DNA from: Escherichia coli
GTDB lineage: Bacteria; Pseudomonadota; Gammaproteobacteria; Enterobacterales; Enterobacteriaceae
NCBI RefSeq assembly: GCF_003334815.1
Contig: NZ_QOWO01000057.1
DNA length: 13,444 nt
Strand: one strand, 5' to 3'
Positions 13,098 to 13,367 of this stretch are shown piece after piece. A program made the position numbers and the translations under genes. The number at the start of each line of letters is the position of its first letter. Within the stretch, counting starts at the first letter, position 1. Below the pieces are notes generated by a model. That model ran no database searches. It was not told the DNA's origin and worked only from the letters and a program-made list of their open reading frames with translations.

Positions 13098-13367
13098 AAC
13101 AAACAACTCCTTGTCCGGAGAACCCCAACGGGCAAAACGAAATTCAATACCGTCGGTAATGACGAAAGGCAGGCGAGAAGGGCAACGAGACTGCAAATGT
13201 ACTGAATTTCATGTAATCAACCACACTGCCTGTGAACACACCGACAGAGAAATACCTTCTGACTCCAGGTCAGAATGTATAACGATTACAAATAGTCATC
13301 AGCACATTACACCTCTTTAATTGATGGCTTGCATAGAAAATATACACCTTAAGTGTAATTAAAATTT

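Follow-up and report, generated by a model that had tools for sequence, protein, structure and literature searches.

The inverted repeat found upstream of the efflux-pump gene mdtM is probably part of an undescribed control element of that gene, since the hairpin it encodes is conserved in five genera and holds the stop codon of the small annotated open reading frame ytiE. In its full-length form, designated HP1 and read from the minus strand, the repeat is probably a native RNA hairpin in the 5′ leader of the mdtM mRNA, and we put at roughly 60% the probability that this leader is a translation-sensing RNA switch setting the transcription or translation that reaches mdtM. Alignments and folding models show the hairpin, the position of the ytiE stop codon within it, its conservation and covariation, and two competing folds of the leader; a regulatory effect on mdtM, in either direction, is inferred from them. 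Throughout, the window refers to the whole stretch of Escherichia coli DNA that was analysed, 13,444 nucleotides in length. The features with which the argument begins are as follows.

11865 to 13097, minus strand: mdtM coding sequence, a 410-aa MFS efflux pump
13252 to 13280, minus strand: HP1, the full-length inverted repeat, an RNA stem-loop AUACAUUCUGAC-CUGGA-GUCAGAAGGUAU
13368 to 13444, plus strand: left end of an IS1 of the IS1F type, which runs past the end of the window

The first-pass annotation had described TTCTGAC-tccag-GTCAGAA at 13257-13275 as a perfect 7-bp inverted repeat about 160 bp upstream of the mdtM ATG and about 95 bp from the IS1 end. A sequence check confirmed the repeat, with its near edge 160 bp upstream of the ATG (at 13097, minus strand) and a measured distance of 93 bp to the IS1 end, whose sequence (GGTAATGCTGCC...) begins at 13368. 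The repeat is, however, longer than first noted: its arms, at 13252-13263 and 13269-13280, comprise 12 nt each and are complementary at 11/12 positions, so that the HP1 stem has 12 bp, with one A·G mismatch and a 5-nt loop. Perfect 7-bp inverted repeats with 3-8 nt loops are common: the window has 13, and dinucleotide shuffles give 5.65 ± 2.7. Taken by itself, the 7-bp repeat is thus not significant, and by this measure it could be a chance palindrome with no function. In contrast, repeats with 12-nt arms and no more than one mismatch are expected only 0.11 times per window. Folded as mdtM-sense RNA, HP1 has an energy of −11.9 kcal/mol (z = −2.85), and 3/200 shuffles fold as well. The decisive evidence for HP1 is comparative, not statistical: the repeat has been kept in five genera, with compensatory changes, while 4-fold degenerate sites are ~50% identical, which makes a chance origin very improbable.

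The only other inverted repeat with 12-nt arms in the window, probably a terminator, lies at 7272-7301 (TTTTTGTTGTTA ... TAATAACAAAAA), in the intergenic gap between two minus-strand ORFs (6030-7253 and 7321-8292). A simple terminator scan flagged HP1 on the minus strand, with the tail GGTATTTCTC; there are just 3 GC pairs in the inner stem, and the tail after HP1 is C-rich in other genera (UCCCCUGU, CUCUUCCU). A CsrA-type GGA loop in HP1 was considered and rejected, GGA being present in the loop here and absent from K-12 and Citrobacter. A search of positions 12900-13444, on both strands, with the Rfam 15 covariance models revealed no family and returned two spurious hits (E > 1). In the literature and Rfam, neither a paper nor a family describing this mdtM leader was found, and the literature search retrieved no paper linking ytiE, a uORF, HP1, or attenuation to mdtM expression.

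A scan for MdtM in one genome per species yielded 48 orthologous loci. Besides Escherichia, a homologous leader was found in Citrobacter (17 genomes), Salmonella arizonae and diarizonae, Yokenella, and Enterobacillus, and 22 leaders from these five genera, many of them from closely related Citrobacter, make up alignment A2. A module consisting of promoter, uORF, and hairpins precedes mdtM in Escherichia, Citrobacter, Salmonella arizonae/diarizonae, and Yokenella; in Enterobacillus, the hairpins are kept and promoter similarity is small. In all five genera, the module was found immediately before mdtM, in the same orientation, and nowhere else; the leader is absent where mdtM directly follows yjiN (Klebsiella, Kosakonia, Phytobacter, and others). 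A metagenome scan with the pattern TTCTGAC N35-65 TTGATTNCNNGAAATTCA added no new genera: apart from one random hit, every match was an Escherichia-, Citrobacter-, or Salmonella-like variant. Two Citrobacter loci have shortened leaders. In Citrobacter gillenii (locus L005, ~2380-2500), the promoter and Shine-Dalgarno (SD) sequence are kept, and the part from the ytiE start to just past the segment designated C′ below is missing; in C. koseri (locus L045), the leader is reduced to the last ~50 nt before mdtM.

In the 22 leaders, 90.5% of HP1 cells are paired, compared to 24-56% in controls in which the helix was slid, and 4 pairs show double-sided compensatory changes (21 cells). The covariation score of HP1 is 0.268, versus 0.156 ± 0.017 in shuffles, 0/500 of which reach it; the number of independent compensatory events behind this score is small, because many of the sequences come from closely related Citrobacter. 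The outer 5 bp of the stem covary, and the inner 7 bp are conserved in sequence without covarying. Identity between genera is 50-65% in the HP1 3′ arm and loop, 59-71% in the leader overall, and 50-55% at mdtM 4-fold degenerate sites at the same divergence. HP1 identity is therefore close to the 4-fold baseline with pairing kept, i.e., the sequence drifts and the complementarity stays. E. coli genomes differ in HP1 only at the loop, the closing pair, and the internal mismatch; of the substitutions that distinguish the window from K-12, 3 lie in HP1, all at unpaired positions, two in the loop and one in the internal mismatch.

The palindrome might instead be a DNA operator through which a dimeric factor, such as a MarR/SlyA- or TetR-type repressor, acts on mdtM. 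Curran et al. (PMC5797941) predicted a SlyA site 249 bp upstream of mdtM, found that overexpression of SlyA raised mdtM 2.5-fold, and observed SlyA binding to a 400-bp fragment upstream of mdtM in EMSA; the last result, and the sequence conservation of the inner half-sites TTCTGAC/GTCAGAA, are what an operator would lead one to expect. The site predicted by these authors, however, lies elsewhere:

13341 to 13352, plus strand: predicted SlyA site TATACACCTTAA, retained in this strain

Moreover, the spacing between the half-sites is not fixed (4, 5, or 6 nt), the outer 5 bp covary with the use of G·U pairs, which is sensible only in RNA, and the repeat is situated ~70-95 nt downstream of the predicted transcription start. 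An operator is thus an improbable explanation of the repeat. No regulators of mdtM other than SlyA were found in the literature, and according to one report, bile salts do not induce mdtM.

What the first-pass annotation missed is that the repeat overlaps the stop codon of an annotated uORF, ytiE:

13270 to 13305, minus strand: ytiE uORF, with a GTG start, the peptide MLMTICNRYTF, and a TGA stop at 13272-13270
13312 to 13315, minus strand: ytiE SD sequence GAGG, 6 nt upstream of GTG; GAGGTG is conserved in alignment A2

The ORF (GTG CTG ATG ACT ATT TGT AAT CGT TAT ACA TTC TGA; 13305-13270) has 11 codons and is 36 nt long, and its position matches that of ytiE (b4823) in the K-12 MG1655 annotation, 173-208 bp upstream of mdtM on the same strand. 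The HP1 5′ arm consists of ytiE codons 9-11 and the UGA stop; a ribosome finishing ytiE must therefore unwind HP1. Stringer et al. (bioRxiv 10.1101/2021.07.02.450978) combined ribosome profiling of start codons with that of stop codons and found ytiE in this way. YtiE was seen by western blot, and a ytiE-nLuc fusion was very active; the authors assigned ytiE no function, and argued that most such newly detected small ORFs are non-functional. The accessible part of their supplementary data contains no ytiE or mdtM string. A minimal ORF, AUG UGC UGA (13299-13307, minus strand), overlaps the ytiE GTG start in another frame, and is invariant in nearly all leaders (AUGUGCUGA).

The 11-codon ORF starting with GTG and ending in TTC TGA C is kept in 21/22 aligned leaders across the five genera. 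Enterobacillus has a different uORF of 9 codons, which stops 5 nt upstream of the HP1 5′ arm (UUUUCUGAC). Amino acid changes occur at ytiE codons 3-5 and 9-10, and third codon positions located in helices are invariant in the 22 leaders. Since synonymous sites in helices are frozen and residues vary, the constraint is on the RNA and on the act of translation, and not on the peptide. A specific arrest peptide is disfavoured, because residues are kept only where the RNA pairs and helix synonymous sites are frozen; nor did the 22 leaders, in which residues 3-5 and 9-10 vary, reveal any repeated (regulatory) codons in ytiE. Read-through of the ytiE UGA-C into a longer ORF was rejected, the downstream in-frame length varying from 4 to 41 codons; one sequence has no in-frame extension past the stop within the aligned region, and in the commonest E. 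coli leader form, an 11-nt indel breaks the frame downstream of the stop.

HP1 is followed by another hairpin, HP2:

13226 to 13247, minus strand: HP2, second stem-loop, CUGUCGGUGUG-UUCA-CACAGGCAG

In the 22 leaders, 95.5% of HP2 cells are paired, with 3 covarying pairs. The HP1 and HP2 helices both use many G·U pairs, and only mdtM-sense RNA is therefore a fitting strand. HP2 has a canonical U-tract in Citrobacter and Salmonella; in Citrobacter, it is followed by CGUUUUUGAUU, and in C. braakii, it was scored as terminator-like. The E. coli U-tract after HP2 is degenerate (UGUGGUUGAUU), and the terminator scan did not score HP2 as a terminator in K-12 (tail TGTGGTTGATT) or flag it in S. arizonae, where the stem is interrupted. 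The accessible part of the supplementary data of the 3′-end study by Adams et al. lists no 3′ end in the mdtM 5′ UTR. The E. coli post-HP2 tail (GUGGUUGAU, 13215-13225, minus strand) is complementary to the mdtM start region (GUUAUGCCAC, 13095-13104), and the minimum-energy fold predicted for the E. coli leaders joins the two; in other genera, the tail has UUUUU and the MdtM N-terminus is different.

As a short translated leader ORF on the same transcript, ytiE is what a trp-type attenuator calls for. However, a conserved 2:3 antiterminator competing with HP2 was not found, either with or without ribosome footprints imposed. The sole candidate, a CAG:CUG pairing of 3-4 bp with a consensus energy of −1.8 kcal/mol, vanishes once a ribosome footprint is set at the ytiE stop codon, and a ribosome parked there does not reach HP2. 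A classical trp-type attenuator is thus unsupported, and with only 3-4 bp of 2:3 pairing, trp-type attenuation was rejected as the mechanism. In E. coli, the spacer has a pyrimidine-rich composition with more C than G, which is only suggestive of a Rho-loading site and makes Rho a candidate route in this species. C above G is also seen in Salmonella and Yokenella, and not in the C. freundii group.

Using RNAalifold and explicit pair counts, we found two long-range folds of the leader, which involve the following segments:

13283 to 13290, minus strand: segment B, ytiE codons 6-8, UGUAAUCG, pairs with B′
13212 to 13220, minus strand: segment B′, UUGAUUACA, partner of B, closes a three-way junction with HP1 and HP2
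13199 to 13210, minus strand: segment C, GAAAUUCAGUAC, the 3′ part of which (A′) pairs with the ytiE start region GUGCUGA
13187 to 13198, minus strand: segment complementary to the ytiE SD, AUUUGCAGUCUC
13139 to 13150, minus strand: segment C′, GUAUUGAAUUUC, ~50 nt beyond C, alternative partner of C

In State 1, the ytiE SD, GUGCUGA, and codons 6-8 (UGUAAUC) are predicted to pair with AUUUGCAGUCUC, UCAGUAC, and GAUUACA downstream of HP2, forming 24 pairs (97.1% paired), with HP1 and HP2 as two arms of a three-way junction; B:B′ shows one compensatory change, in Enterobacillus. In State 2, the whole of segment C pairs with C′ instead (12 pairs, 99.2% of cells paired), which leaves the ytiE ribosome-binding site (RBS) free. 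The two states are mutually exclusive, because UCAGUAC belongs to both. The predicted energy difference between them is just −4.3 to +7.5 kcal/mol in 10 species, and if the uORF columns are masked, to imitate ribosomes, the consensus fold changes over from State 1 to State 2. By computation, the leader thus possesses two exclusive conserved folds, one of which engages the uORF RBS and coding region, as would be expected of a switch. The mdtM SD is in a small CUCC...GGAG hairpin with low predicted accessibility in both states; the idea that the two states set exposure of the mdtM RBS was rejected, since constraint folding showed no consistent difference. A stretch of 11 nt, TTGCAGTCTCG (RNA sense, 13186-13196), which is part of the SD-pairing segment, is present here, in K-12, and in Citrobacter, and is absent from 4/4 E. 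coli genomes sampled from the 90-95% identity class. This class, the commonest leader form, comprises 3205/4033 genomes, and every match listed for it is 259 bp long.

If the leader is a translation-sensing switch, it might work as follows. A ribosome finishing ytiE would unwind HP1. HP1 and HP2 would otherwise stand at the tip of the long-range State 1, where the ytiE SD, start, and codons 6-8 are paired, and the competing C:C′ helix of State 2 would free the ytiE RBS. Ribosome traffic on ytiE would then decide which fold forms, and the fold would control mdtM, with premature termination at HP2, Rho, or mRNA decay as possible routes.

A different role for the two hairpins is conceivable, if doubtful: both may belong to a separate transcript of ~115 nt, with the coding sequence of YtiE and a 3′ end at HP2, which could be a dual-function sRNA or a small mRNA. 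The hairpins would then serve its termination and stability, and mdtM would be expressed by incidental read-through. That HP2 with its CGUUUUUGAUU tail is a canonical intrinsic terminator in Citrobacter, that no antiterminator was found, and that ytiE is strongly translated would all agree with such a transcript. On the other hand, E. coli is without the U-tract, the peptide is not conserved beyond what RNA pairing needs, and in none of the five genera was the module found anywhere but immediately before mdtM, in the same orientation. Furthermore, the most conserved block of the leader (B′ to C; 76-90% identical between genera) is downstream of HP2, and pairs with the uORF region.

The first-pass annotation had considered the repeat in connection with the IS1 insertion, which, it suggested, may have displaced or altered the native mdtM upstream region; a comparison with IS1-free strains was proposed. 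This comparison upheld the suggestion only for the far side of the junction. Homology with IS1-free K-12 breaks off at 13368, and the 270 bp from there to mdtM are native, at 97% identity to K-12. The possibility that the repeat is functionally tied to IS1, having been created by it or lying in an IS1-driven promoter, draws on the distance of 93 bp between them, and is scarcely credible: the arms are identical in IS1-free K-12, 55989, O157, and others, and the repeat is present in other genera, and just 448 of 4033 genomes with the leader show this IS1 junction. The repeat occurs in strains without IS1 and is therefore native and independent of it. The junction does fall within the predicted promoter, whose elements in the window are:

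13352 to 13357, minus strand: predicted −10 element TACACT of the ytiE-mdtM promoter, nearly invariant across genera
13376 to 13381, minus strand: −35-like TTGGCA in the IS1 terminal inverted repeat, 18 bp from TACACT, takes the place of TTGATT

Conservation between genera starts abruptly at TCTTTTGATTAAC, at the −35, and the putative native promoter, as judged by its sequence, consists of TTGATT, a 16-17 bp spacer, and TACACT, with 8/12 consensus positions. The junction at 13368 falls between the conserved −35 and −10 elements. IS1F starts 10 bp upstream of TACACT and removed everything upstream of the −10; the native −35 is consequently gone in the window. The earlier suggestion that IS1 ends can supply outward-reading promoter elements finds a putative instance here in TTGGCA, and the hybrid TTGGCA-18 bp-TACACT, with 9/12 consensus matches, has the sequence of an IS1 fusion promoter. 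Fusion promoters are documented for IS1 in a review (PMC9330008), where the hybrid promoters of Prentki et al. 1986 and Goussard et al. 1991 and the activation of acrEF (Olliver et al. 2005) are listed. As in those cases, the IS1 terminal repeat would provide the −35-like element and the flank the −10, upstream of an efflux-pump gene. Unlike them, the −10 here is mdtM's own conserved element, so the −35 would have been swapped, rather than a silent gene activated. A further difference is that IS1F is found here without a target duplication, at a deletion or replacement junction. A full 768-bp IS1F copy in an identical genome has no target-site duplication (left flank TAAAATTTG, right flank CGACAGCGA), and beyond it (window 13368-13444; locus L001, 6369-7885) lie the brnT/brnA toxin-antitoxin pair and then yjiA, instead of rpnD...mrr. 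Given the lack of a duplication and the different far flank, IS1F is here no simple insertion, and marks the point at which the variable restriction-gene region was deleted or replaced. In this lineage, the part of K-12 that holds the restriction genes (rpnD to mrr) is replaced, and the annotation of some genomes gives brnT or the IS1 transposase as a pseudogene.

A second IS1 junction was also turned up by the metagenome pattern scan. In metagenome contig PPYF01241663.1 (locus L060, 1-100), IS1 abuts TACATTCTGAC inside ytiE, so that neither the promoter nor the SD is left and most of the uORF is gone. In E. coli ET734 (NZ_CP100922.1; locus L167, 1540-1600), IS1X2 abuts CGGTATTGAATTTCG, ~55 bp from the mdtM ATG, which removes the uORF, HP1, HP2, and segment C. 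Both extra junctions are independent, and the same IS1 end faces mdtM; they could represent recurrent IS1-mediated truncation or bypass of the leader.

An inverted repeat also flanks the predicted −10 (AUUUUAA-UUACAC-UUAAGGU; 13346-13365, minus strand), overlapping the predicted SlyA site. The C. freundii group has AUCCGCA-UUACAC-UGCGGAU at the −10, with adjacent compensatory changes around the conserved loop. Compensatory change of this kind is odd for untranscribed promoter DNA, and may point to a start site further upstream, or to a DNA-level hairpin or protein site.

The leader is found in 4033/5426 complete E. coli genomes and the IS1 junction of this window in 448, so that a promoter-splitting IS1F junction is common among complete E. 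coli genomes (448/5426). This junction and the other IS1 truncations, at different depths, may alter efflux-pump expression in natural isolates. With the analysis presented here, ytiE gains a concrete, testable cis-regulatory role and mdtM a candidate control mechanism. A more far-reaching interpretation, which we consider tentative and on balance unlikely, is that MdtM, which pumps out cations as well as drugs, is made inducible by ytiE, HP1, and HP2 acting together as a sensor of ribosome occupancy. If ribosomes were to stall or slow down on ytiE, e.g., through chloramphenicol or other translation inhibitors exported by MdtM, they would prevent the leader from closing into State 1, and read-through into mdtM would be allowed. 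If this were true, several enterobacterial genera would possess an unrecognised antibiotic-responsive, possibly pH- or cation-responsive, leader, and the recurrent IS1 junctions would offer a means of getting round it.

Leader-peptide attenuators of the trpL, hisL, and pheL type have a translated leader ORF with its stop codon in the first of two consecutive hairpins. The mdtM leader resembles them in that the ytiE stop is in the first of two hairpins, the element is situated between promoter and structural gene, and the second hairpin is GC-rich, with a U-tract following it in Citrobacter and Salmonella. It differs from them in having no regulatory codon run and no conserved 2:3 antiterminator, in the loss of the E. 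coli U-tract, and in the presence of ~130 more conserved nt and a second alternative helix past the putative terminator. In the ermCL, cat, and cmlA leaders, a hairpin directly sequesters the RBS of the resistance gene. Like these, the mdtM leader combines an ORF of no more than 11 codons with adjacent hairpins upstream of a gene for resistance to chloramphenicol or other drugs; unlike them, it has the mdtM RBS ~150 nt downstream of HP1, and ytiE has variable residues and no known stalling motif.

A third group of comparable systems is formed by mgtL-mgtA, corL-corA, mdtU-mdtJI (PMC7815308), and toiL-topAI (bioRxiv 10.1101/682021), leaders in which a uORF governs a switch between alternative RNA folds, with Rho or the unmasking of an RBS as the means of control. 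The mdtM leader is unrelated to these in sequence, is known computationally, and has a predicted mdtM RBS accessibility that shows no consistent difference between the two states. It shares with them a uORF that overlaps one of two exclusive folds, a transporter or stress gene downstream, a poorly constrained peptide, and, in E. coli, a pyrimidine-rich spacer with C above G. The weak constraint on the peptide suggests that ribosome occupancy is what is sensed.
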